From an uncultured virus (IMG/VR IMGVR_UViG_3300025122_000011) (lineage: Duplodnaviria > Heunggongvirae > Uroviricota > Caudoviricetes): 20,000 nucleotides of DNA. The DNA lies in IMG/VR virus record IMGVR_UViG_3300025122_000011, one strand, 5' to 3'. Below, in pieces: positions 5,501 to 20,000 of the stretch. Under the pieces are notes generated by a model that saw nothing but the letters and a program-made list of their open reading frames with translations, searched no databases and had not been told where the DNA came from. Within the stretch, counting starts at the first letter, position 1. Each line of letters begins with the position of its first letter. A program made the translations under genes and the position numbers.

Positions 5501-5528
5501 TTGACAGATCCGAAATATGCTATACAAT
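5501..5528 (+). promoter_or_regulatory. sigma70-type early promoter, leaderless
   Basis: TTGACA-16-TACAAT, ATG 6 nt downstream (5535). Confidence 0.85.
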
Positions 5529-5996: not shown

Positions 5997-6024
5997 TTGA
6001 CAGATCCTAAAAACAGTGTATGAT
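5997..6024 (+). promoter_or_regulatory. sigma70-type early promoter, leaderless
   Basis: TTGACA-16-TATGAT, ATG 6 nt downstream (6031). Confidence 0.85.
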
Positions 6025-6528: not shown

Positions 6529-6556
6529 TTGACAGACTCCGAAATTAGTGTATAAT
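6529..6556 (+). promoter_or_regulatory. sigma70-type early promoter, leaderless
   Basis: TTGACA-16-TATAAT, ATG 6 nt downstream (6563). Confidence 0.9.
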
Positions 6557-7043: not shown

Positions 7044-7071
7044 TTGACAGACTACAAAATTAGTGTAGAAT
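7044..7071 (+). promoter_or_regulatory. sigma70-type early promoter, leaderless
   Basis: TTGACA-16-TAGAAT, ATG 6 nt downstream (7078). Confidence 0.85.
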
Positions 7072-7537: not shown

Positions 7538-7565
7538 TTGACAGACTCCGAAATTAGTGTAAGAT
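7538..7565 (+). promoter_or_regulatory. sigma70-type early promoter, leaderless
   Basis: TTGACA-16-TAAGAT, ATG 6 nt downstream (7572). Confidence 0.85.
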
Positions 7566-8205: not shown

Positions 8206-8511
8206 GTGATATTAAGGATCGTTACACTCGTCGTGGTGAGTATAAATAGTGTGTTCTAAGCCACGAGCGTCCGCATCTTACAAGTGGTAATTTGCGGGGA
8301 GACACCCATTAGCACTAATTGCTAGGTTGCAAACTAGCAGGGGACAAAGGATATTAGTGTTGTGTTTAATATTGTATTAGATCTATCGCCTGAGGCAAGA
8401 GATAGAAAGAAGCTACATTACTTGGGTCTGACTCAACACGTTCCTTCTAGAGGATGCGAGACAGAGCAGTAAGAGAGTTTCTTCGACAAGCCTCCCCATT
8501 AATATCGCTAG
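8202..8511 (+). ncRNA. candidate ~310-nt structured ncRNA, family unknown
   Basis: Largely ORF-free; closing helix GTGATATTAA(8206-15)/TTAATATCGC(8499-508) and several internal stems. Confidence 0.55.
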
Positions 8512-8907: not shown

Positions 8908-9129
8908 ATGACTATCATCACACAACTTAGGTGCCAAGGGTGCCAAGACACTAACCCAGATGGGCTCCGTCCTGTCCGACTCGTCACGAAGATTAGCACA
9001 GGCGAGACCAAGGCCATGTGTCCGACATGCTTTGACTTTCTCATTAGGGTCAGCGACACGCTCGACTACACCGATGACCGCGTCTTCGCTCCAGAATTTC
9101 GAGTTTCACCTCTTGACAATCCGAGATAA
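8908..9129 (+). CDS. small zinc-finger protein
   Basis: CQGC...CPTC; abuts upstream stop. Confidence 0.7.
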   Translation: MTIITQLRCQGCQDTNPDGLRPVRLVTKISTGETKAMCPTCFDFLIRVSDTLDYTDDRVFAPEFRVSPLDNPR

Positions 9130-9140
9130 TCGGCTATAAT
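9113..9140 (+). promoter_or_regulatory. consensus sigma70 promoter, leadered transcript
   Basis: TTGACA-16-TATAAT; AAGGA SD before ATG 9183. Confidence 0.85.
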
Positions 9141-10244: not shown

Positions 10245-10604
10245 ATGAAAACAATATTTCTAGATATCGACGGAACTATATTCTACCAATCCGACCGCTG
10301 CGACGAGGTCTATAGAACCCAGCCTGGGCTAATAAAGGGCTCAGCTAAAAAGTGTTGGCAGTGGCATCAAAAAGGCTATAATATAATCCTTACTACAGGA
10401 AGGCCTGAATCCTCTAGGAAATGGTGTGAACAAGCTCTAGCTCATCATAATATTGTGTATGATCAACTTATTATGAGTTTAAAGCCTTGGCCTCGTTATT
10501 TAATAAATAACGACCGATGGCGACCGTCGGATCAACGGGATGATCTCACCGCTTTTGCAAATACAATCCCCACAAATCATGGCATAAGTGATTTAGACAT
10601 CTAG
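10245..10604 (+). CDS. HAD-superfamily phosphatase (capless, PNKP-phosphatase-like)
   Basis: Motif I 'TIFLDIDGTI', motif II 'ILTTGRP', later 'K...INND'; start re-assigned to MKTIF. Confidence 0.85.
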   Translation: MKTIFLDIDGTIFYQSDRCDEVYRTQPGLIKGSAKKCWQWHQKGYNIILTTGRPESSRKWCEQALAHHNIVYDQLIMSLKPWPRYLINNDRWRPSDQRDDLTAFANTIPTNHGISDLDI

Positions 10605-10667
10605 GCTTAGGCCCCTTCGGGGCCGGGGCGAAATCCCTAAGTCCCTACACACCAACACCTTATGAGC
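10604..10667 (+). repeat. module-boundary element copy 5
   Basis: Identical to copy 4; overlaps TAG stop. Confidence 0.95.
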
Positions 10668-10700
10668 CATAAAAACTTCAAAAAAACATGAAACCGTGGC

Positions 10701-10728
10701 TTGACAGACCCTAAAATTAGTGTATGAT
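10701..10728 (+). promoter_or_regulatory. sigma70-type early promoter driving a tRNA-like RNA
   Basis: TTGACA-16-TATGAT; predicted +1 is 10735. Confidence 0.85.
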
Positions 10729-10734
10729 ATACAG

Positions 10735-10842
10735 GGCGCTGATATTGGCTTTGCTGTGCATTACGACGATTCCCGCGACCGTTTCGTAGCGGTGTTGAAG
10801 GGATGAGGCATAGTAGGGGGTTCAAATCCCCCCAGCGTCACC
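10735..10842 (+). ncRNA. tRNA/tmRNA-like RNA without anticodon arm
   Basis: Acceptor GGCGCTG/CAGCGTC + ACC; T-arm GGGGG-TTCAAAT-CCCCC; unpaired D-region; long helix TGCTGTGC/GCATAGTA. Confidence 0.75.
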
Positions 10843-10857
10843 TTTTCCCCAAAACTA

Positions 10858-11055
10858 ATGAAAAAAGCACGATACACCCTAAGCGTAGAGTATGACAACG
10901 GAGATTTGCTTCGTCAGCCCTACCTCACCCAGGCCAGAGCCTATCGGATCCTAAAAGCCTACGAGGACAAGGGTTGGATCTACCGCCCGATCGGCTGGAA
11001 GCCCCTTCGCATCACTCGATGGAAGCTCTCCACAGGTTGGCAAGAAACCGAATAA
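10858..11055 (+). CDS. small hypothetical protein
   Basis: 65-aa ORF filling the gap between the RNA and the next promoter. Confidence 0.65.
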   Translation: MKKARYTLSVEYDNGDLLRQPYLTQARAYRILKAYEDKGWIYRPIGWKPLRITRWKLSTGWQETE

Positions 11056-11061
11056 TAGGGC

Positions 11062-11089
11062 TTGACAGACCCCGAAATTACTGTATAAT
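11062..11089 (+). promoter_or_regulatory. sigma70-type early promoter, leaderless
   Basis: TTGACA-16-TATAAT, ATG 6 nt downstream (11096). Confidence 0.9.
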
Positions 11090-11095
11090 AGAAGC

Positions 11096-11389
11096 ATGAA
11101 TGAACGCCAAGAACACGGCCCTCTGGGGCACCAAGAACTCCGAGAAATCCAAGAACAACACATGAAGCTCGTCAACATGGCGAACGAGTTTGACTCTTTC
11201 TTTATCCACTACCTATTCGGTTGGATGGGTGTCGAGCGACACAAGGACATGGCAGAGTGCGCTCGCGCCTATCTTAATGACCAATACGGAGTACGCGACG
11301 TTCCTCGGCGGGACGAGGGTCGCGCCCTTCTCGCTAAATTCGACGAGGAAAACAACCTGTCGGAGAAGTCGGTGGACGTAATAAAGTGA
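11096..11389 (+). CDS. hypothetical protein
   Basis: 97 aa, starts at promoter +1. Confidence 0.75.
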   Translation: MNERQEHGPLGHQELREIQEQHMKLVNMANEFDSFFIHYLFGWMGVERHKDMAECARAYLNDQYGVRDVPRRDEGRALLAKFDEENNLSEKSVDVIK

Positions 11390-12012
11390 AAATCGCCGAA
11401 GCTAAAGCGATCACGGGGGGTCTCTCCAATCCCTCTAAGATGCCAGGGAAAGCCTACAATCTATCCGCTTTCGATTGTGATATGGGCTCTAAACTCGCTG
11501 TAAAAGCGGGAAGTGTATGCTCGGGATGCTATGCTCGAAAGGGTCGCTATCGTTTCCCTATGGTGCAAAAAGCTCTAAAGCGTAGACTCGCCTCCCTCGA
11601 TCACCCTTATTGGATCGAGGCGATGGTCACGCTAATTAGCAAACAATCCCCCAAACACTTTCGCTGGCATGATAGCGGGGATATTCAAAGCCTCGCGCAT
11701 CTAATGGCTATTACTGCGATTTGTGGATACACTCCTAATACGCAGCATTGGCTCCCTACTAAAGAATACGGGATAATCAAACAATATCTAAAGCATTGGG
11801 ATTTTCCCTCTAATTTGTGTGTTCGTGTTTCGGCTCCACTCATGGATCATCTCCCTAAGACGCTCTCGGGTGTCTTGGGGAGTATGGTTTTCTCGAAAGA
11901 CAAAAAGCCTGATACTTCGATCTGCCCCGCATCTAAACAAGGAAACCAGTGTGGCTCCTGTCGCAATTGCTGGGATTCTTCTATTCCTGTAATTGCTTAC
12001 CCGAAACACTAA
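11386..12012 (+). CDS. GP88-family phage protein (Cys-rich, radical-SAM-like)
   Basis: 'GGLSNPSKMPG', C..CSGCYA, 'FRWHDSGD', 'HWLPTKE', C-terminal 'CPA...CGSCRNCWD'; GTGA overlap. Confidence 0.8.
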   Translation: MKIAEAKAITGGLSNPSKMPGKAYNLSAFDCDMGSKLAVKAGSVCSGCYARKGRYRFPMVQKALKRRLASLDHPYWIEAMVTLISKQSPKHFRWHDSGDIQSLAHLMAITAICGYTPNTQHWLPTKEYGIIKQYLKHWDFPSNLCVRVSAPLMDHLPKTLSGVLGSMVFSKDKKPDTSICPASKQGNQCGSCRNCWDSSIPVIAYPKH

Positions 12013-12251
12013 TGCACATACCCGAAGCACTCTCATGCGCTGCCGATGCAATTATGATCTGGGACTATCATTCTGCCCCTTTGCAGTATAGCGATAAGTT
12101 TCCCGACGATGACTGCGATTATATAGCATACATTCCAAACGGGATAATCCCACCTTATCTAGAAGAGGGAACCCGCTTCGCCCCTTGTGAAATTAAACTC
12201 TCTTTTATTCCGCTAGACGACGCTATCGTTATCGCAGGGTACCACGCATGA
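12012..12251 (+). CDS. small acidic hypothetical protein
   Basis: MHIPEALS...; TAATG coupling. Confidence 0.65.
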   Translation: MHIPEALSCAADAIMIWDYHSAPLQYSDKFPDDDCDYIAYIPNGIIPPYLEEGTRFAPCEIKLSFIPLDDAIVIAGYHA

Positions 12252-12460
12252 AACCGAAACCAAAAGCTAAAGCTATCGAGGATTTTCTGGAAGAGTCCTC
12301 AAAGTCTCTTTATGGCAGTTCACGCCTCGACTGTATCAAACACAATACATGCGTGAAGTGTGCAGCTAACGCTAAACGCTTCCGTGATACTTCTTCCTTG
12401 GAGGAGTTTGCAATATCTGGTTATTGCCAAACTTGCCAAGATTCTATTTTTGGGAAATAA
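12248..12460 (+). CDS. small zinc-finger protein
   Basis: CVKC...'EFAISGYCQTCQDSIFG'; ATGA overlap. Confidence 0.8.
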   Translation: MKPKPKAKAIEDFLEESSKSLYGSSRLDCIKHNTCVKCAANAKRFRDTSSLEEFAISGYCQTCQDSIFGK

Positions 12461-12466
12461 TCCAAT

Positions 12467-12685
12467 ATGTTCAATTCCGTTACGGAAATTCACAATAAGT
12501 CGATCGCGTTGGGTAATGCGTTCGCTGCGTCTTATGCGTCCGACTCGTCGAGCGATGCCACTCTCGCATTGCTGGAAAACTACAAGGACGAACGGCGCAA
12601 GCTCGCTAAGCAGATGGGTCCAAACGGTTACAAGCGTCCTGGTGCTGCCGAGGCTTTCTCGGCCACTCAGGGCGATAACCTGTAG
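12467..12685 (+). CDS. small hypothetical protein
   Basis: 72 aa, in operon order, ends just before boundary element. Confidence 0.65.
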   Translation: MFNSVTEIHNKSIALGNAFAASYASDSSSDATLALLENYKDERRKLAKQMGPNGYKRPGAAEAFSATQGDNL

Positions 12686-12694
12686 CCTAGACTA

Positions 12695-12755
12695 GACTTA
12701 GGCCCCTTCGGGGGCCGGGACGCCCCCCCATAAGTCCTTACTATCACAACACTTA
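12695..12755 (+). repeat. module-boundary element copy 6 (divergent)
   Basis: GACTTAGGCCCCTTCGGGGGCC...TAAGTCCTTACTATCACAACACTTA. Confidence 0.85.
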
Positions 12756-12784
12756 AAATTATCCAATAAGTATTAAGTGGGGGG

Positions 12785-12812
12785 TGGACAAATCGATTTT
12801 GTGTGCTACAAT
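12785..12812 (+). promoter_or_regulatory. sigma70-type promoter, leaderless
   Basis: TGGACA-16-TACAAT, ATG 7 nt downstream (12820). Confidence 0.7.
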
Positions 12813-12819
12813 AGTAGGT

Positions 12820-13026
12820 ATGAAGTTGACAGAACTAGAAACATTCATCGTTCGCACCCTCACGATTATCGAGAAGCTCCTCCCCCACGACGAGGAAGGT
12901 GCGAAAGCGTTTTATGACATCTCTAAGGTGCTCGGATTGGATACTGAAAAGCATCCCGCCGACTCTGTTCGGGAACTTGCTGATAAGCTCACCCCGCCCC
13001 ATCCTCGCACCGCGAGTATGAACTAA
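12820..13026 (+). CDS. small hypothetical protein
   Basis: MKLTELE...; start re-assigned. Confidence 0.7.
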   Translation: MKLTELETFIVRTLTIIEKLLPHDEEGAKAFYDISKVLGLDTEKHPADSVRELADKLTPPHPRTASMN

Positions 13027-13343
13027 TGGGATTTTTCTCGTGGGATTGTGAAGTTTGCGGGCATCCGCTGCTCAGTGTTTATGCGTTAGAAGATAAAAAT
13101 GCATGGATGAATAACGTCGTAATACTTACCGAAGAAGGACACAAATTCTCAGGGGCATACGATGGATATGGTAGTGTAGATGACTGGCAGGAACCTTTCG
13201 AGGACGGGACCTGCGAATGCTATCATAAACTATGCTGGGAAAAAGCAGGAAAACCTACACGGTTTACAGAAGCATCTGAAATGTCAGACGACCAAGGGTA
13301 CTTTTTCGAGGCTGGAGTGCATAACATTCCTGAACCAAACTAA
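13026..13343 (+). CDS. hypothetical phage protein
   Basis: 'MGFFSWDCEVCG...GAYDGYG...DQGYFF'; TAATG coupling. Confidence 0.8.
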   Translation: MGFFSWDCEVCGHPLLSVYALEDKNAWMNNVVILTEEGHKFSGAYDGYGSVDDWQEPFEDGTCECYHKLCWEKAGKPTRFTEASEMSDDQGYFFEAGVHNIPEPN

Positions 13344-13561
13344 TGACTAAATACACAATCGAGTTGGATGAGGAAGAAATCGAAATTGTGAAAAGGATCT
13401 TTACGGACTTCAACCACCAACAAAGCCTGCACGTCGTCGAGCACCTTGCCATCTACAACCAGTGGGCGGTCCAACGCCACCTCGATCTCGCGCAGGATCC
13501 CCTGTTCGGCCCATTGCTGAAGGGAATTTTAGACCAGATTTTGAACCCGAAATACGACTAA
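13343..13561 (+). CDS. small hypothetical protein
   Basis: TAATG coupling; last gene before terminator. Confidence 0.7.
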   Translation: MTKYTIELDEEEIEIVKRIFTDFNHQQSLHVVEHLAIYNQWAVQRHLDLAQDPLFGPLLKGILDQILNPKYD

Positions 13562-13587
13562 CTAGCCCCTTTTGACTTTTATAATAG

Positions 13588-13609
13588 AAGCCCCAAAAGG
13601 GGCTTTTTT
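13588..13609 (+). terminator. Rho-independent terminator closing the early region
   Basis: AAGCCCC-AAAA-GGGGCTT followed by T run. Confidence 0.85.
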
Positions 13610-13671
13610 CGTGCCTAAAACGAAAGTTAGACGTTTTGACTTTTCTCCTACTTTCTCTAGGAGCAACAACA

Positions 13672-13700
13672 TCTAAGTTGTTATTATTTCACGACTTAGA
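13672..13700. promoter_or_regulatory. solo 29-bp palindromic site related to the boundary element
   Basis: TCTAAGTTGTTATTATTTCACGACTTAGA; same TAAG-N17-CTTA geometry. Confidence 0.65.
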
Positions 13701-13966
13701 TTTTTGGGTGTTTTTAGCTTTTCTGATGTATTTGACCGTCTAAATCACGTTTTGACTTTTTTACTGTGGGGGGTCGATACGGTAAAGGGGTCTCAGACCT
13801 TGTTTGACTTTTTTACAAGCCTTTGTAATTCTTTCAAAATAGCTTGTAATAGGGCTATTCGATCAGTTAGAGTGGTTTTTATGGTTTGACTTATTTGCAT
13901 ATATATAAGTTGATTCTTACTTAAGTCGGTTTTGACTTATTTGCGGTGGGGCCAAGCTCACATAGT

Positions 13967-14053
13967 TCAAAAACAGCTAACCATAATGATAAATGCAATT
14001 CCAACTATAATCATAGGCCAGAACATTGGTATTCTTACCAATTTCTCAATCAT
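13967..14053 (-). CDS. 28-aa membrane peptide (not in ORF track)
   Basis: MIEKLVRIPMFWPMIIVGIAFIIMVSCF*. Confidence 0.45.
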   Translation of the reverse strand: MIEKLVRIPMFWPMIIVGIAFIIMVSCF

Positions 14054-14061
14054 TTGACTTT

Positions 14062-14244
14062 TTACCAACTTTGTCTCCCTCTAACATGGTTGAAATAAGC
14101 TATTGTTTTATCCACTCCTTTACCCTCGTTTTCTTCCTCTTTGTCCTGGTTATACTCTACTCTCCTATATATCGGAATAGGTGTTTTGACTTTTCTACAT
14201 AGCTTATCACTATGTTCAATACGTTCTTTCTCTTCATCACTCAT
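14062..14244 (-). CDS. small hypothetical protein
   Basis: 60 aa in - strand gene run. Confidence 0.55.
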   Translation of the reverse strand: MSDEEKERIEHSDKLCRKVKTPIPIYRRVEYNQDKEEENEGKGVDKTIAYFNHVRGRQSW

Positions 14245-14250
14245 GAAATT

Positions 14251-14460
14251 CTACCCTGAGAAAAAACTAAAGAAATCCTCTTCCGTCCTTGCTTTCTGTT
14301 TCAGGTCCTTGAGTATCTTCGCCATGTCTGTCCACATGAGTCGGAAGATCTGAGCATGTATCTTGGTAGCTAGAGCTACCTTACCCCCGAAGGAGTAAGC
14401 CTCATCTACTTTTTCTGATAGATCTGCTAGCTCACGCAGTTTCTTCGCTATATGTTTCAT
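14251..14460 (-). CDS. small hypothetical protein
   Basis: 69 aa helical ORF in - strand gene run. Confidence 0.65.
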   Translation of the reverse strand: MKHIAKKLRELADLSEKVDEAYSFGGKVALATKIHAQIFRLMWTDMAKILKDLKQKARTEEDFFSFFSG

Positions 14461-14567
14461 CGTAGCTTTCTAGTGCCTTTCCTTCGTAGGCTTGTTCTCC
14501 TTTGAAAAGAAACCCATTATTTTACTCCTAAAACAGTTATAATATAGACTTTGTCCACTGATAATCC

Positions 14568-14921
14568 TTAAGGAAGAAGTCTATCATATTCGTTAATACG
14601 ATTTACAATCTCATTAACAGTTCCATACACTACTATGTAACTAACATTTGGATTAGCATGGAACCCTTGGACAGCTACAGTATGCGATTCTGCTCCCTGT
14701 AACACAGGTGCTAGGCTCTCAGTATACATTACTACCAAATCCTCTTTTCCGTCCCACCCATATTTTAAGAGCTTTTCTTTATCTTCTGGTCGAGCATTTT
14801 GGAGGGCTTTAATTCTCTTAGGATCTATCCATAAATCAGTACGTCGATCGGTTAGATCCCCTGAGACTTTATGAAACTCAAATACTGTGAATTTAACTAA
14901 CATCAGGCTTATCCTCTTCAT
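14568..14921 (-). CDS. hypothetical protein
   Basis: 117 aa; true start may be the second Met. Confidence 0.65.
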   Translation of the reverse strand: MKRISLMLVKFTVFEFHKVSGDLTDRRTDLWIDPKRIKALQNARPEDKEKLLKYGWDGKEDLVVMYTESLAPVLQGAESHTVAVQGFHANPNVSYIVVYGTVNEIVNRINEYDRLLP

Positions 14922-15534
14922 CTAACCTAATTGGGGTGACTGGAACTGTTGATAGTAGAACTACTTTTGTTACATACTCACTAATGACAACATTTCTTTC
15001 TGCTTCAATAGCCCGAATAATACAGTTTATATGGCTATCTTTATATTGAGGAACAGGCCCATAGTGAGTAGCGGAGTATATTGCTTCCTCCAAGGTGTTA
15101 GCCATAACATGTAATTTCTTTACTACAGTTTCTTCTATATTGATTTCGAATTTAGTTTCAGTCGGGCTCATATACTTACCTGCTGCTCTGCCCATCAAAC
15201 GCCACAAATCTTTGTAGCTCATGGGAATTGAAATATCAAGCCCTGATTCAAGCCTAATAACAGTTGAACCTTTAAGATCGTTAGGGTCAGGCCAACATAA
15301 TGTGATGTGCCTCAGATTGATCGCTAAGGGCACCTTGTTACCGTTGTCAATAGACAACCATGCAGTAGGGCGAGAGCCTGAGATCACATCCTGGGGAAGC
15401 TCAAGGGGTGTTGAGGGTGTCTTGGTGATTGCTAAGGGAGTGACCGTGAGAACGAACGCTCCTAAACATAAAACTACAACCCGTGAGCCGATACTTTCCC
15501 CGAAATAGAACGTGGCAACTTCTTTTAATTTCAT
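14893..15534 (-). CDS. hypothetical protein with N-terminal membrane anchor
   Basis: Hydrophobic 'VVVLCLGAFVLTVTPLAI'. Confidence 0.65.
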   Translation of the reverse strand: MKLKEVATFYFGESIGSRVVVLCLGAFVLTVTPLAITKTPSTPLELPQDVISGSRPTAWLSIDNGNKVPLAINLRHITLCWPDPNDLKGSTVIRLESGLDISIPMSYKDLWRLMGRAAGKYMSPTETKFEINIEETVVKKLHVMANTLEEAIYSATHYGPVPQYKDSHINCIIRAIEAERNVVISEYVTKVVLLSTVPVTPIRLDEEDKPDVS

Positions 15535-15551
15535 ACTAGTTTACTTTCCAA

Positions 15552-15707
15552 TTAATTTCTTACTAATGCCCACCAACTTGAACCAGCATATAGCAATCCC
15601 CAAGTTATAAGCAAGCATCCTGCTAATGAAGTCCACCCAACTAGGTGAAATCCTACCGCCAAAGCGACTATCGATATTGCATTTACTACCCAATCTGGTT
15701 TAAGCAT
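15552..15707 (-). CDS. 51-aa membrane protein (not in ORF track)
   Basis: MLKPDWVVNAISIVALAVGFHLVGWTSLAGCLLITWGLLYAGSSWWALVRN*; TAATG coupling to the sigma-like gene. Confidence 0.6.
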   Translation of the reverse strand: MLKPDWVVNAISIVALAVGFHLVGWTSLAGCLLITWGLLYAGSSWWALVRN

Positions 15708-16276
15708 TATAGATCACTCCCTAGTGCTGTTGCTATTTTAGATACTAAACTCTTTGCCACTACCCACGAACACTTCATCCCACGCGAAAGAGCCAGAATA
15801 TTTACTTTGCCACCAGACGTTAGAAACTTGTTGGACTCTAAAATCATGTCCAAGGCTTGTGATTCTTTATGCCCTAAGTTTACCCTAAGATCGTCAAAAT
15901 ACAAGTCTGAGAATGTCACATCATCGTATACCTGCTGATCTACATGCTTGTAATCCATTGAGAATGTCTTCTTCAACATTGGAATCTTTTTGCTGATCTT
16001 TTTACCTCTGTTGTTTTTTGAATGCCACAAACACGTCTTTGTATATTTATCAAAGAGTGGGTTTTCCCACATCTCACTAAAGGTTTGCCCAGTCTTGCGG
16101 TGGAAGCCGTTGATACTTTCTATTGCAGCTAAGCACAGTTCAGCATAGTTATCCTCAAGGTTAGCCACAGCGTTATCACCTGATATTCGTCTAGTGATGG
16201 AGTGCATAAGCCTACCATACTGTTCTTCATACTGTTCCCACTGTGCGGCAGTTACATCTAGTGTTACTTTATGCAT
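15707..16276 (-). CDS. sigma70/ECF-like RNA polymerase sigma factor (divergent)
   Basis: Region-2-like 'YGRLMHSITRRI...LEDNYAELCLAAIESINGF...FDKYTKTCLW' and C-terminal HTH-like 'NILALSRGMKCSWVVAKSLV'. Confidence 0.6.
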   Translation of the reverse strand: MHKVTLDVTAAQWEQYEEQYGRLMHSITRRISGDNAVANLEDNYAELCLAAIESINGFHRKTGQTFSEMWENPLFDKYTKTCLWHSKNNRGKKISKKIPMLKKTFSMDYKHVDQQVYDDVTFSDLYFDDLRVNLGHKESQALDMILESNKFLTSGGKVNILALSRGMKCSWVVAKSLVSKIATALGSDL

Positions 16277-16554
16277 TAGTTCTCGTCCTCTTCGGGGAAA
16301 GTATCTACAAGCTTATTGAGATACCACTGAGCCTTCTTGAGATCTTCTTCAAACTTCTCTTTATAATTACATCGCATAGTATACTTTAAAATGTTACCTA
16401 AAAGGTACCCCTGGAATTGTTCAGGACTGAGCTTCGATTCAATAACCTTGACAGCTTCATGCCCTCCCATTGTGTAATGGTCAGGAGAATTTACATTATC
16501 TTCAGACATGGGCAGGTAGAAGTCTAAACCTAAGGGGTGATTTGATTTCTTCAT
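16276..16554 (-). CDS. DUF3310 family protein
   Basis: 'DNVNSPDHYT.GGHE...GYLLGNILKY..R...K...EDLKKAQWYLNKL'. Confidence 0.9.
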   Translation of the reverse strand: MKKSNHPLGLDFYLPMSEDNVNSPDHYTMGGHEAVKVIESKLSPEQFQGYLLGNILKYTMRCNYKEKFEEDLKKAQWYLNKLVDTFPEEDEN

Positions 16555-16817
16555 TTTTCTAATTCTCCCTCCCAGAAAGTAATACCATCCTGATACTGCA
16601 TATGGTAAACAATTGAATCACTGATAACTGCTACGGTATCATCTGATCCTCCATTTTGGTGTATGGCTAAAATAGCTTCAACACGATTAATATCTCTCTG
16701 CACTGCTCTACGACAATACTTCCACTTAGTAGTCTTCTTCCTACATTGAGCCTGGGAGAGTATGTTGATGAGCTTTGTGCGGATCTCTACCAAAGTCTTC
16801 TCTGCGTCACTTATCAT
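16551..16817 (-). CDS. hypothetical protein
   Basis: 88 aa, ATGA overlap. Confidence 0.65.
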   Translation of the reverse strand: MISDAEKTLVEIRTKLINILSQAQCRKKTTKWKYCRRAVQRDINRVEAILAIHQNGGSDDTVAVISDSIVYHMQYQDGITFWEGELEK

Positions 16818-16819
16818 AA

Positions 16820-16914
16820 TGGTCCTGCCCCACGGGAACTATCCGTGAATGTTACTCGATTTACTTTTCCAAGCCGTAACTAAACAGTTGAGAAACACCT
16901 GACAACAGGGCAGG
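16820..16914 (-). ncRNA. tRNA-like RNA with encoded CCA but no canonical anticodon arm
   Basis: Acceptor CCTGCCC/GGGCAGG + ACCA; T-like arm CACGG-ATAGTTC-CCGTG; fills the intergenic gap almost exactly. Confidence 0.7.
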
Positions 16915-16915
16915 C

Positions 16916-17233
16916 CTATTCATCATACTCTGTAATGAGAGAAGTATGATCCCATTTCTCCCACAACTCGGGAAGATTCTTCTCTACCCATGAAATATAG
17001 TCTTCACTAGGATTCCACAGATAATACACAGACCCACTACTGGTGGTAATAAGTCTTCCCGAATCATTCACTTTTACAAAGTGTGAAGTGGTAATCTCAT
17101 CACCATCTTCAAACTTATCACTGTTATATACTTTGCCGTGCAATGATAGCTTTATAGTTTCAGGAGCAGCGTAAGGATTTTGGGGAGGTCTGGCTACCAC
17201 AGCCCAGTCACGTAAAATTACTTTATTCATCAC
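16916..17233 (-). CDS. hypothetical phage protein
   Basis: 105 aa, 'PYAAPE...LHGKVY...FEDGDEITTS...TSSGSVYYL'. Confidence 0.75.
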   Translation of the reverse strand: MMNKVILRDWAVVARPPQNPYAAPETIKLSLHGKVYNSDKFEDGDEITTSHFVKVNDSGRLITTSSGSVYYLWNPSEDYISWVEKNLPELWEKWDHTSLITEYDE

Positions 17234-17388
17234 TTACTTATTCTTCTGGAGTTTTTATCCTTCAAAAAAATGTAGCCCTTACCTTTGCCATGCTTGAGGT
17301 CTCTTTTACCTCGCACAGACCCTTTACGGCCAGTAGCTTTATTGCTTTTGTTCTTTAGATGTTTATTTGGTTTCTGCTTTAGACTCAT
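17230..17388 (-). CDS. small very basic protein
   Basis: MSLKQKPNK...; start re-assigned (AGGA SD); the longer ORF overlaps the RNA gene. Confidence 0.6.
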   Translation of the reverse strand: MSLKQKPNKHLKNKSNKATGRKGSVRGKRDLKHGKGKGYIFLKDKNSRRISK

Positions 17389-17403
17389 AATTTTATTCCT
17401 AAA

Positions 17404-17515
17404 TGGTGGAGGTGGCGACATCGAAATCGCGTCTTACTAAAAACCCTTTAGTTGCAAGCGCAGTTTATCGGGCTGGTCTTTCACCTGTTCTAGCAATCGA
17501 ATCCATTTCACCCCC
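17404..17515 (-). ncRNA. minimal tmRNA-like RNA (tRNA-like domain with vestigial interior)
   Basis: 5' GGGGGTGAAATGGATTCGA...GACGCGATTTCGATGTCGCCACCTCCACCA 3'; G3:U70, discriminator A, P2-like helix; only 112 nt. Confidence 0.85.
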
Positions 17516-17516
17516 G

Positions 17517-17897
17517 TTATATATCCTCCTTAAGATCTTCTTCCCATTCATTACTCTCCCTCCAAAGTATATCAGCTTCCAACTCTATCTCATCGAGTGC
17601 CTTACTCAAAAAAGACTCCACATCTTCTTCTCCCGTCCAATCAAAATATTGGGATTCACAATCTATATCGCTTCCCTCTACTATACTGCCTACTGCCAAG
17701 CCAGACTCAGTAAACTGAATCCACGCCCCACAAGCAGTTCCCTTGAACAGAGCCTTTTGGATCCTGTGGACAGGGCATCCTTTTTCTAGGCCAAAATAAA
17801 CTGCAACTCGATCCGTAAGGTCTTCGCCCATGGCTCGCTGTTCCTCACCGTGTTCGTAAGGATCCCACGCTTCAGACGGACAGGGTATATGGGTCAT
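17517..17897 (-). CDS. acidic hypothetical protein
   Basis: 126 aa, AAGGAG SD, first gene after promoter. Confidence 0.8.
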   Translation of the reverse strand: MTHIPCPSEAWDPYEHGEEQRAMGEDLTDRVAVYFGLEKGCPVHRIQKALFKGTACGAWIQFTESGLAVGSIVEGSDIDCESQYFDWTGEEDVESFLSKALDEIELEADILWRESNEWEEDLKEDI

Positions 17898-17955
17898 TAT
17901 TCTAATTCTCCTTGTTGGGCATCGAACAGCCTCAGAACTTGAGGCTCGTCCACCT

Positions 17956-17983
17956 ATTATAGACTATTTTTCGAGTCTGTCAA
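17956..17983 (-). promoter_or_regulatory. consensus sigma70 promoter of same family as early promoters
   Basis: TTGACA-GACTCGAAAAATAGTC(16)-TATAAT on - strand; leader hairpin AGCCTCA-AGTTC-TGAGGCT. Confidence 0.85.
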
Positions 17984-18101
17984 TCCCCTGCGCCAAACAA
18001 ATGCTGCCAAGTGAAGGCAGGGGGCGTTGGGCCGTGAGACCTTAGGGATATCATGCTTTTGTGTTTTTAGTTATGCAACTCAATGTAATATAAAAATGAT
18101 C

Positions 18102-19437: not shown

Positions 19438-19511
19438 TGGTAGATCGTGTAGGAATCGAACCTACTTCAAACAGATTAGAAGTCCATTGGCCTAAATCCA
19501 TAGGACGATCC
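19438..19511 (-). tRNA. tRNA-Arg(TCT), atypical D-arm
   Basis: GGATCGT/ACGATCT+ACCA; anticodon arm ATGGA-CTTCTAA-TCTGT; T-arm GTAGG-TTCGATT-CCTAC. Confidence 0.8.
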
Positions 19512-19557: not shown

Positions 19558-19632
19558 TGGAAAGCAAGGAAGGTAACGCTCCTTCTTCTTCGGGACCAAA
19601 ACCCGACGTAATAGCTTCTATACTACTCGCTC
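19558..19632 (-). tRNA. tRNA-Gln(TTG), atypical T-loop
   Basis: GAGCGAG/CTTGCTT+TCCA; anticodon arm TCGGG-TTTTGGT-CCCGA; T-arm GAAGG-AGCGTTA-CCTTC. Confidence 0.75.
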
Positions 19633-19638
19633 AAAAGT

Positions 19639-20000
19639 TTAGCGTCGATGCTGGCGACGACGACTCTTATACATACGATTAGCCTTATGACAACGGGAAC
19701 GGGAACGAATGCTTCCGCGAACCCTATCCTTGATACTCCTGCGACCCTGGAATCTGCCGCTTTTATTAGTACGACCCCAACTCTTCCTACGGCTGCTAGA
19801 ACCCTTTCGGCTAGAACCCTTTCGGAGGCTGCTAAAGCTCTTTCGGCTAGAACCCTTTCGGCTAGAACCCTTTCGGCTAGAACCCTTTCGGAGGCTGCTA
19901 AAGCTCTTTCGGCTAGAACCCTTTCGGCTAGAACCCTTTCGGCTAGAACCCTTTCGGCTAGAACCCTTTCGGCTAGAACCCTTTCGGCTAAAGCTCTTTC
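19639..20000 (-). CDS. protamine-like Arg/Lys/Ser-rich repeat protein, C-terminal part (start outside window)
   Basis: Open frame ...KSFSRKGSSRKGSS...RRSIKDRVRGSIRSRSRCHKANRMYKSRRRQHRR* with TAA at 19641-19639. Confidence 0.7.
   Translation of the reverse strand, partial: KSFSRKGSSRKGSSRKGSSRKGSSRKGSSRKSFSSLRKGSSRKGSSRKGSSRKSFSSLRKGSSRKGSSSRRKSWGRTNKSGRFQGRRSIKDRVRGSIRSRSRCHKANRMYKSRRRQHRR
19795..20000. repeat. 15-bp coding tandem repeat
   Basis: GCTAGAACCCTTTCG and variant GCTAAAGCTCTTTCG, with occasional in-frame 6-bp insertions. Confidence 0.95.

Follow-up and report, generated by a model that had tools for sequence, protein, structure and literature searches.

A candidate tag-less mini-tmRNA encoded by an uncultured marine phage

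The locus and its predicted early transcription unit

The window, that is, the whole stretch of DNA analysed here, comprises the final 19.9 kb of an IMG/VR virus record of 31.3 kb, which carries phage protein families and is estimated to be 28% complete. Its minus strand holds a short RNA gene, element 1, and its plus strand a second tRNA-like sequence, element 2 (Table 1). Element 1 had been described in a first-pass annotation as a mini-tmRNA in which the alanyl tRNA-like domain (TLD) is intact and the mRNA-like domain is almost deleted.

Table 1. Positions of the two RNA elements, their parts, and their neighbours in the window
Feature	Position	Strand	Basis or remark
Element 1 (putative mini-tmRNA, 112 nt)	17404..17515	-	tRNA-like domain, helix 2, and three-way-junction arm
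5' acceptor strand GGGGGUG (nt 1-7) and first D-loop base	17508..17515	-	7/7 pairs with nt 102-108
D-loop analogue with GGAUUCGA, without D stem	17497..17507	-	aligned to RF00023 consensus GGaUUCGAC
Helix 2, 5' strand (nt 20-28)	17488..17496	-	9/9 pairs
Inner arm (nt 29-73)	17443..17487	-	hairpin A and stem B; MFE fold
Helix 2, 3' strand (nt 74-82)	17434..17442	-	pairwise check; comparison with G050_A
GAC linker (nt 83-85) and T arm GCGAU-UUCGAU-GUCGC (nt 86-101)	17415..17433	-	5/5 stem pairs
3' acceptor strand CACCUCC, discriminator A, encoded CCA	17404..17414	-	sequence and RF00023 alignment
Early promoter TTGACA-16-TATAAT, 12/12	17956..17983	-	would drive the operon with element 1
Upstream ORF, 126 aa	17517..17897	-	conserved phage family without assigned function
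Downstream ORF P0018, 52 aa, 19 Lys/Arg	17230..17388	-	ATG 16 nt past CCA, AGGA before it
Element 2, tRNA-like/TLD-like RNA, 109 nt	10735..10843	+	RF00023 35.4 bits
Element 2 early promoter, 11/12	10701..10728	+	predicted start = G1 of the RNA
65-aa ORF	10858..11055	+	starts 14 nt after element 2, same transcription unit

Nine copies of a predicted extended promoter (TTGACAGAC.C..AAA.TAGTGTA..AT) are found in the window. In six of the nine, an ORF opens with an ATG exactly 7 nt past the -10 box, and therefore leaderless early mRNAs are implied. Element 1 lies 441 nt downstream of the copy that matches at 12 of 12 positions, on the same strand, and a scan detected no terminator-like site between the two. 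The stop codon of the 126-aa ORF ends 1 nt before the RNA. Since element 1 thus lies between ORFs, it would be excised from a polycistronic transcript.

Outside its own cluster, the 126-aa protein has 16 relatives (E <= 0.001; alignment A2), and distant homologues are present at 65 viral loci. Of 64 records with such homologues (49 + 15; locus L077 was left out), three hold matches to the Rfam tmRNA model, RF00023, over its cut-off (405, 290, and 80 nt), none of which adjoins the homologue of the upstream protein; the weaker RF00023 matches that were inspected in these records are ordinary tRNAs. A 472-aa protein matches only mycobacteriophages and Microcystis phages, at ~31% identity. Comparison with 50,697 phage records gave no match, either for 5.5 kb by megablast or for the RNA by blastn; the two flanking proteins likewise had no tblastn match among phages, and single-protein scans of IMG/VR for the locus returned no relative. 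The 31-kb fragment holds no SmpB gene, a result that is uninformative with ~28% of the genome covered.

The basic peptide encoded downstream, P0018, has four homologues (P0021-P0024) of 49-52 aa with 73-81% identity. Searches at E <= 10 gave no match in Pfam or NCBIfam and only an unrelated protein (E 0.093) among PDB sequences, and the best Atlas score, 0.84, was to unnamed clusters. The sequence of the peptide is of low complexity. An ArfA-like identity for P0018 was considered and rejected, as it has no support from Pfam, NCBIfam, PDB, or Atlas.

The possibility that the short form of the RNA is an assembly error, which had been raised in the first-pass annotation, is dispelled by other assemblies: L004, an independent metagenome contig of 14.6 kb with 99.97% identity across 3112 nt, carries element 1 unchanged, and so do contigs of all four marine runs that were compared. 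The stretch is present in 24 run rows from 21 studies, all labelled as marine or seawater metagenomes and none of them an RNA run; at least half of the sampled words occur in nine of the 24 rows, and one row may be the source of the record. Contigs from the four runs, which cannot show transcript ends, were aligned to 10500-18100. The contig records across element 1 contain 6, 6, 1, and 0 differences, none of which lies in 17404-17515. Six variable sites flank the element (17203, 17271, 17544, 17545, 17553, and 17649), and these explain all record-level differences for X5, X8, and X9; the X3 contig reaches only 17512, so that it covers nt 4-112 of element 1, with no differences. The short form is fixed in the natural population. 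The invariance of element 1 there is statistically uninformative, however, because only ~0.7 changes would be expected in 112 nt.

The tRNA-like domain and its phage relatives

The RF00023 match to element 1 spans exactly 17404-17515 on the minus strand and model positions 1-374, with 45 nt of the element standing in place of 306 core positions. Its E-value, 2.7e-17 for the 551 nt searched and 3.6e-19 for the whole viral record, is far beyond chance. The score of 46.4 bits lies 0.6 bits under the gathering cut-off of 47 because the T loop is only 6 nt long (UUCGAU) and is closed by U:G, the canonical form being 7 nt and G:C; the element goes unreported in a gathering-mode Rfam scan. The Infernal search suggested in the first-pass annotation thus supports the assignment even though the score is under the threshold, while ARAGORN, also suggested there, called neither a tmRNA nor anything else in the window. 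The free-energy z-score of -1.84 is unremarkable alone, with 8 of 200 shuffles folding equally well.

A pair-by-pair check of the sequence bears out the parts listed in the first-pass annotation. The acceptor GGGGGUG/CACCUCC is paired at 7 of 7 positions, including G3:U70, and is followed by A73 and an encoded CCA. The stemless D-loop analogue (the GGAUUCGAC feature) consists of the unpaired AAAUGGAUUCGA and a facing GAC linker, both aligned to the consensus, and G18 and A19 stand opposite G83 and A84, which we take to be the tandem G-A arrangement of tmRNA. Helix 2, UUGCUAGAA/UUUUAGUAA, has all of its 9 bp formed and encloses exactly 45 nt, where a P2-like helix around ~45 nt had been claimed; at its base is U20-A82, where C-G is usual. 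The T arm has its 5-bp stem, but its loop had to be corrected from 7 to 6 nt, closed by U:G. The same 6-nt UUCGAN loop is present in the phage RNAs L026 and L038, which argues that this form is tolerated, and we assume that the T loop of element 1 is suited to T-loop/D-loop packing and to SmpB. The pseudoknot ring (PK1-PK4) and the ~350-nt length of a tmRNA are absent. The earlier reading of element 1 as a tRNA-like domain derived from tmRNA, with no mRNA-like domain that could be used, is upheld. Judged by its sequence, element 1 appears to be a true phage gene whose product is a mini-tmRNA with a complete alanine-type TLD and no tag.

Other phage RNAs of this kind were found by pattern searches. 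A strict pattern (GGGG..G....GGATTCGA, gap, TTCNA, TCCACCA) returned four stretches of the metagenome collection: L004, L005 (111 nt, 71.2 bits), L006 (105 nt, 60.0 bits, beside three tRNAs), and L003, which has no Rfam match and was discarded as a chance match. A shorter-gap pattern gave 15 IMG/VR loci with nine distinct sequences of 68-90 nt, and six of the nine scanned exceed the Rfam cut-off; a pattern for mini-tmRNAs of 95-125 nt found none in IMG/VR, and neither L026 nor L027 had a BLAST match among phage records. All seven acceptor pairs and all five T-stem pairs are formed in 13 of 13 phage mini-tmRNAs. The TLD frame of element 1 is shared by L025-L039 and L111 (68-90 nt) and by L005 and L006; L026 and L038 have, in addition to the 6-nt T loop, a 5' end nearly identical to that of element 1. 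The inner arms of all these mini-tmRNAs, in contrast, are unrelated to that of element 1 in sequence and shape, and many of these RNAs lie in tRNA clusters, whereas element 1 has a protein gene on either side.

Covariation, which had been named in the first-pass annotation as a check, supports the frame. In an alignment of 14 phage mini-tmRNAs, including the RNA of phage DS6A and L111, both of which were found without the pattern, 95.9% of the frame cells are paired, as against 47-58% in controls with slid partners; 16 of the 21 pairs change on both sides, and the score is reached by none of 500 shuffles. The pattern itself fixed G1-G4, G7, and U70-C72 in 12 of the 14 sequences, so that only the other two bear independently on whether G3:U70 is invariant; the T stem and helix 2 were free of pattern constraint. 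A covariance model built from the 14 sequences (R1) gives element 1 75.1 bits, with element 1 in the training set. The 5' 19-mer of element 1 is found in 18 genome contigs, of which 13 are full-length tmRNAs from many phyla and five are non-tmRNA sequences, about the number expected by chance; it provides no host signal.

Among known RNAs, the nearest to element 1 is the "TLD only" tmRNA of DS6A (JN698994.1 28478-28560, tmID 11587; PMC4131195, PMC11915505), which is unannotated in its record. Like element 1, it is phage-encoded, has a G3:U70 acceptor, a stemless D-loop, helix 2, and a T arm, lacks a tag frame, and falls just below the RF00023 cut-off, at 43.2 bits, a lower score than that of element 1. 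It differs in being 83 nt long, with a plain hairpin as its arm, 7 nt in the T loop, and a CCA end that is not encoded, whereas element 1 has 112 nt, a three-way-junction arm that is conserved in a second phage, a 6-nt T loop, an encoded CCA, a predicted early operon, and a conserved basic-peptide gene as its neighbour; BLAST detects no sequence similarity between the two. Full-length phage tmRNAs are described for Bxz1-type mycobacteriophages, Bacillus phage G, and, as a two-piece ssrA, Melnitz (PMC4131195, PMC9004378), and some phage ssrA derivatives are said there to be placed behind early promoters (PMC9004378). Derivation from ssrA on a phage is common to these RNAs, to L110 (290 nt) and L109 (405 nt), and to element 1, but the full-length forms have pseudoknots and tags ending in ...LAA or ...VAA with stops, and element 1 has neither. 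CDS-less tmRNAs are also reported from jakobid mitochondria and Mallomonadaceae plastids (PMC11915505). These, too, are natural tRNA-like domains with no tag frame; however, they are ~65 nt long, and each is the sole tmRNA of its organelle and not a competitor imported by a virus. A literature search, mostly of titles and the beginnings of abstracts, found no phage TLD-only RNA family beyond DS6A, which is itself treated in database papers.

The inner arm and a homologue in an unrelated phage

In the MFE fold, the inner 45 nt form hairpin A (GGU/ACC) and stem B (GCCC/GGGU), the latter with a 23-nt A-rich loop. It was within this region that the first-pass annotation had seen AUAAACU-GCG-CUU-GCA, read as a resume context fused to the end of a tag (Ala-Leu-Ala). 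The motif is present and falls in the A-rich loop of stem B; the frame that fits the context, AUAAACU-GCG, reads ALATKGFLVRRDFDVATST and runs to the 3' end with no stop codon, and the +2 frame gives Ala-Cys-Asn (ACN) and then a stop. A weight matrix built from nine real resume contexts, however, finds its best match elsewhere in the 45 nt, with 669 of 5000 shuffles scoring as high. When the arm is aligned locally with the cores of 15 full-length tmRNAs, p exceeds 0.3 for 14 of them, the sole exception lying outside the tag region. The reading as a resume context and tag end is thus not supported. The resemblance is nevertheless understandable, because real tmRNAs with the same 5' 19-mer have similar contexts, such as aataact-gcc, and tags ending in ...ALAA.

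The only homologue of element 1 found is G050_A (L133:1501-1616), an RNA of 116 nt in a 175-kb IMG/VR phage, and a scan of IMG/VR with an inner-arm pattern returned this phage, G050, alone. G050_A scores 52.2 bits under RF00023 in a genome search, although it was missed by one cmscan run, and 48.3 bits under R1, for which it was outside the training set; a second mini-tmRNA, G050_B (71 nt, 42.1 bits), lies 600 nt away. G050_A is like element 1 in its G3:U70, helix 2, hairpin A, stem B, and three-way junction, and unlike it in having no encoded CCA, a 7-nt T loop, another stem B loop, and another genomic context. The helices have been maintained in the face of sequence change. Helix 2 has a common CUAGA core and three pairs that differ on both sides and are still paired, hairpin A is GGU/ACC in both RNAs, and a comparison of stem B gives G:U, C:G, C:G, and then C:G against G:C. 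With the TLD frame enforced, the three-way junction of G050_A has a free energy of -37.2 kcal/mol, as against -37.3 for the free MFE. The sequence of its stem B loop is unlike that of element 1, and the resume-like motif is absent from it.

By eye, the loop of hairpin A could pair with that of stem B, as AAG/CUU in element 1 and UUGG/CCAA in G050_A. Such a loop-loop pairing was set aside, since it is too short to be told from chance with two sequences.

With a motif no better than chance and an arm that is conserved in G050_A with a different loop, the idea that the inner 45 nt are a vestigial mRNA-like domain finds no support. A working micro-tmRNA, on which the ribosome would resume within the arm at GCG (Ala-Leu-Ala...) or GCU (Ala-Cys-Asn-stop) and add a very short tag, is highly improbable. 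It could draw on the stop in the +2 frame, on the existence of natural tags of two amino acids (Ala-Ala), as reported in PMC11915505, and on the likeness of AUAAACU-GCG to real contexts, for example aataact-gcc. However, the frame that fits the context is stopless, the motif is at the level of chance and missing from G050_A, the site of resumption would be in a loop whose stem is conserved, and ARAGORN finds no tmRNA. Furthermore, the natural mRNA-like domain and its pseudoknots are reported to encircle the 30S beak as a ring of 81 x 97 A (PMC8363625); a stretch of 45 partly paired nucleotides on a 9-bp helix could hardly span it, and the loop would be much smaller than this message-loading ring. 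The inner 45 nt are thus better regarded, on the strength of their sequence, as structure and not message.

The comparison with G050 also bears on the proposal that element 1 is a non-functional remnant, either a decaying pseudogene of a phage tmRNA or an attP-type fragment of a host ssrA. A score just under the Rfam cut-off and an unusual T loop might be expected of such a remnant, but both gene ends are present in one compact frame with all helices intact, and a homologue of like size and architecture with compensatory changes is found in an unrelated phage. An integration fragment would have one end only, according to PMC4131195, and no integrase was found among the 27 ORFs of the window. 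A non-functional remnant of either kind is therefore scarcely credible as an explanation.

Competition with host tmRNA and other possible roles

Element 1 is taken to be real, and its function would most likely be SmpB capture or inhibition of tagging. SmpB sequestration and rescue of ribosomes without tagging, the two functions that had been put forward in the first-pass annotation, are the leading hypotheses of our analysis as well. In the model that we favour, element 1 would be transcribed early, from a consensus sigma-70-type promoter and within a polycistronic RNA, and would be released in the manner of a tRNA by an RNase P cut at G1 and 3' trimming to the encoded CCA. It would then capture SmpB in competition with host tmRNA, and a complex of the alanylated TLD with SmpB and EF-Tu may occupy stalled ribosomes; host trans-translation and proteolytic tagging would be damped during infection. 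Expression, processing, charging, SmpB binding, and physiological effect are all steps that we infer. Such an early-made competitor is given the first place because element 1 keeps the parts that bind SmpB, AlaRS, and EF-Tu without a message to resume on, and we judge the chances of this model, including its capture of SmpB and perhaps of stalled ribosomes, to be about even.

In many bacteria trans-translation is indispensable or nearly so, and it serves as a target for drugs. If an RNA made by a virus blocks or reroutes this process, it would be an inhibitor of natural origin and would hint at the reason for the interest of phages in ribosome rescue. What would be new here is a TLD-only form in an abundant marine phage, the capacity of a TLD-only RNA to bear a conserved structured arm, the possible presence of two such RNAs in one phage, and a candidate protein partner for an RNA of this type.

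The primary source cited for the inhibition of tmRNA by a DS6A-like molecule is reportedly Mao et al. 2009. In PMC4131195, SmpB binding and inhibition of host tmRNA are given only for a DS6A-like molecule in E. coli, and inhibition by a TLD-like molecule is said to be independent of charging. Truncated tmRNA, together with SmpB and EF-Tu, is reported to bind the ribosome and to enter the A site (PMC8363625).

The main rival to competition is rescue without tagging, since the alanine identity set has been kept. In this case, alanylated element 1, with host SmpB and EF-Tu, would accept the nascent chain in a stalled ribosome. After translocation, the A site would again be empty and there would be no message, so that a second rescue factor would be needed; the chain would be freed by ArfA/RF2, by ArfB, or by drop-off and Pth, and the product would be unmarked. 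A pure SmpB sponge would need neither the alanine identity set nor the encoded CCA, and element 2 lacks both. Entry of the truncated tmRNA-SmpB-EF-Tu complex into the A site, as described in PMC8363625, fits rescue as well, and the CDS-less tmRNAs that some mitochondria and plastids possess are believed to assist where mRNAs are incomplete (PMC11915505). However, no second rescue factor was found in the fragment, the adjacent peptide is not ArfA-like, and the inhibition reported for the TLD-like molecule is charging-independent (PMC4131195). Rescue of this kind is thus considered rather unlikely. Elements 1 and 2, with and without alanine identity, provide a test pair in which charging-dependent and charging-independent effects could be separated.

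A simple decoy would need neither a conserved arm nor a basic peptide that co-occurs with it, which hints that there is more going on than competition. One proposal, which we regard as unlikely, is that the arm of element 1 is the binding site of P0018 and that the two make up a portable ribonucleoprotein module acting on ribosomes or RNA turnover. The only IMG/VR relative of P0018, one of 275 pattern candidates, is in G050, in the same record as the homologous RNA. When six-frame ORFs of at least 45 aa from the 31-kb record were compared with G050 at E <= 1e-4, P0018 alone matched, so that this peptide accompanies an RNA with the conserved arm in two phages that otherwise share no ORF of this size; the length and sequence of the peptide are kept in its relatives. 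On the other hand, two genomes only are involved, the gene and the RNA lie ~24 kb apart in G050, the peptide is of low complexity and belongs to no known family, and two phages of the same host might have accessory genes in common with no physical partnership between the products. A more specific version, distinctly unlikely, would have element 1 and P0018 act as a portable module on stalled ribosomes or those with an empty A site, without or against host SmpB, with element 2 as an uncharged decoy. If true, the module would be a virus-made minimal counterpart of tmRNA-SmpB.

Element 2 is perhaps a second RNA of this type. Its 7-bp acceptor, GGCGCUG/CAGCGUC, has G2:U71 and no G3:U70, and its 3' end reads ACC and then U, in a register set both by the T arm and by the start that the promoter predicts at G1. 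The T arm is canonical (GGGGG-UUCAAAU-CCCCC), a long arm is also present, and the fold z-score is -2.62; helix 2 runs straight into the T stem, the GAC linker being absent, and the model alignment has gaps at CGA and at the linker. The 35.4 bits under RF00023 compare with 19.7 under the RF00005 model and with the 15-23 that ordinary tRNAs receive under RF00023. Under R1, however, it does no better (31.2 bits) than a true tRNA-Ala (31.5), and a scan with an element-2 pattern found no other example. Element 2 may therefore be a tRNA-like or a TLD-like RNA, its membership being uncertain, and by the alanine identity rules it is probably not alanylated. Its mature 5' end is probably set at transcription, since G1 is at +7, the same position as the ATGs of the leaderless mRNAs.

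The placement of the two elements suggests one further role, that of tRNA-like punctuation, in which RNase P/RNase Z or RNase E signals would cut the early transcripts and the RNA would be a by-product. Precedents are mascRNA for MALAT1 and the tRNAs in mitochondrial transcripts. Element 1 begins 1 nt after the upstream stop and ends 16 nt before the next ATG, element 2 forms a 5' leader to the 65-aa ORF where other early mRNAs are leaderless, and the second-best Rfam match of element 2 is mascRNA-menRNA (25 bits, E 0.0088). As the main explanation, punctuation is nonetheless very doubtful, because it does not require G3:U70, GGAUUCGA, the GAC linker, or helix 2, and because most other mini-tmRNAs lie in tRNA clusters and not between ORFs. 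A punctuation role could coexist with the competition for SmpB that we favour.

A second tRNA-like RNA and the early promoters

The window carries a second tRNA-like RNA, resembling the tRNA-like domain of tmRNA, whose acceptor contains G2:U71 rather than the G3:U70 of the 112-nt mini-tmRNA and which has no GAC linker. Its promoter lies at 10701-10728 (+), with a predicted start site that is exactly the first base of the RNA, and a 65-aa ORF begins 14 nt 3' of it. In X3, one of the marine metagenome runs whose contigs were compared with 10500-18100 of the window, a second contig at about half depth has one deletion and two insertions at 10768-10777, within the inner arm of this RNA; therefore, a variant form of it is present in the same sample.

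That promoter is one of nine copies in the window of an extended early promoter, TTGACAGAC.C..AAA.TAGTGTA..AT. At six of the nine, the ATG that opens an ORF lies exactly 7 nt 3' of the -10 box, a spacing from which it appears that leaderless early mRNAs predominate in this phage.

Features of the window and of phage G050
Feature	Coordinates	Strand	Remarks
Early promoter, copies 1-4	5501-5528, 5997-6024, 6529-6556, 7044-7071	+	
Early promoter, copies 5-8	7538-7565, 9113-9140, 10701-10728, 11062-11089	+	
Early promoter, copy 9	17983-17956	-	
Pistol self-cleaving ribozyme match	8226-8304	+	Rfam, 38.6 bits (gathering 34.5), E 0.0005
Second tRNA-like RNA	10735-10843	+	RF00023 (Rfam tmRNA model), 35.4 bits
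52-aa peptide	17230-17388	-	19 Lys/Arg
126-aa ORF	17517-17897	-	Conserved, functionally uncharacterised family of phage proteins
tRNA gene	19441-19511	-	Not called by ARAGORN
tRNA gene	19561-19632	-	Not called by ARAGORN
Tandem repeat	19910-20000		About six copies of a 15-nt unit (CGGCTAGAACCCTTT); last 91 bases
G050 first mini-tmRNA	L133:1501-1616 = G050:C1:144825-144940		
G050 second mini-tmRNA	L133:2211-2281 = G050:C1:145535-145605		

ORFs flanking the mini-tmRNA

Outside its own cluster, the 126-aa ORF has 16 relatives in the protein collection; the family is also found at 65 loci in IMG/VR, and the motifs K.T.CGAWI and GS.VEGS are invariant in it. Four relatives of the 52-aa peptide, with 73-81% identity to it, preserve its whole length; the change I40V, seen in its natural variants, fits with this stretch being coding sequence.

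RNAs and sequence matches in other genomes

The 175-kb phage G050 has 16 tRNA genes, together with two mini-tmRNAs separated by 600 nt. What ARAGORN calls at the first is instead a "permuted tmRNA" of 429 nt spanning that RNA, which looks like a miscall. Elsewhere, a tRNA-shaped sequence of 71 nt ending in CCACCA (L119:1501-1571, G023:C1:66502-66572) scores 18.5 bits with RF00023 and 30.8 bits with R1, the covariance model built from 14 phage mini-tmRNAs; it is not called by ARAGORN.

In five genome contigs (L007, L012, L015, L016 and L022) the 19-base 5' end of tmRNA runs into unrelated sequence that looks coding. Chance alone would give about four matches of this kind, though two of these non-tmRNA contigs have three additional bases in common with the mini-tmRNA of the window.

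Other RNA features of the window

The Pistol ribozyme match, which scores over the Rfam cut-off, is positioned 3' of a small ORF. In the tRNA pair, one gene scores 43 bits, and inspection of its anticodon loop by eye gives UUG (Gln). The second gene, at 28 bits, is slightly below the cut-off and encodes its CCA; its loop was read as CU-UCU-AA (Arg). The 15-nt tandem repeats fall beyond the contig end.
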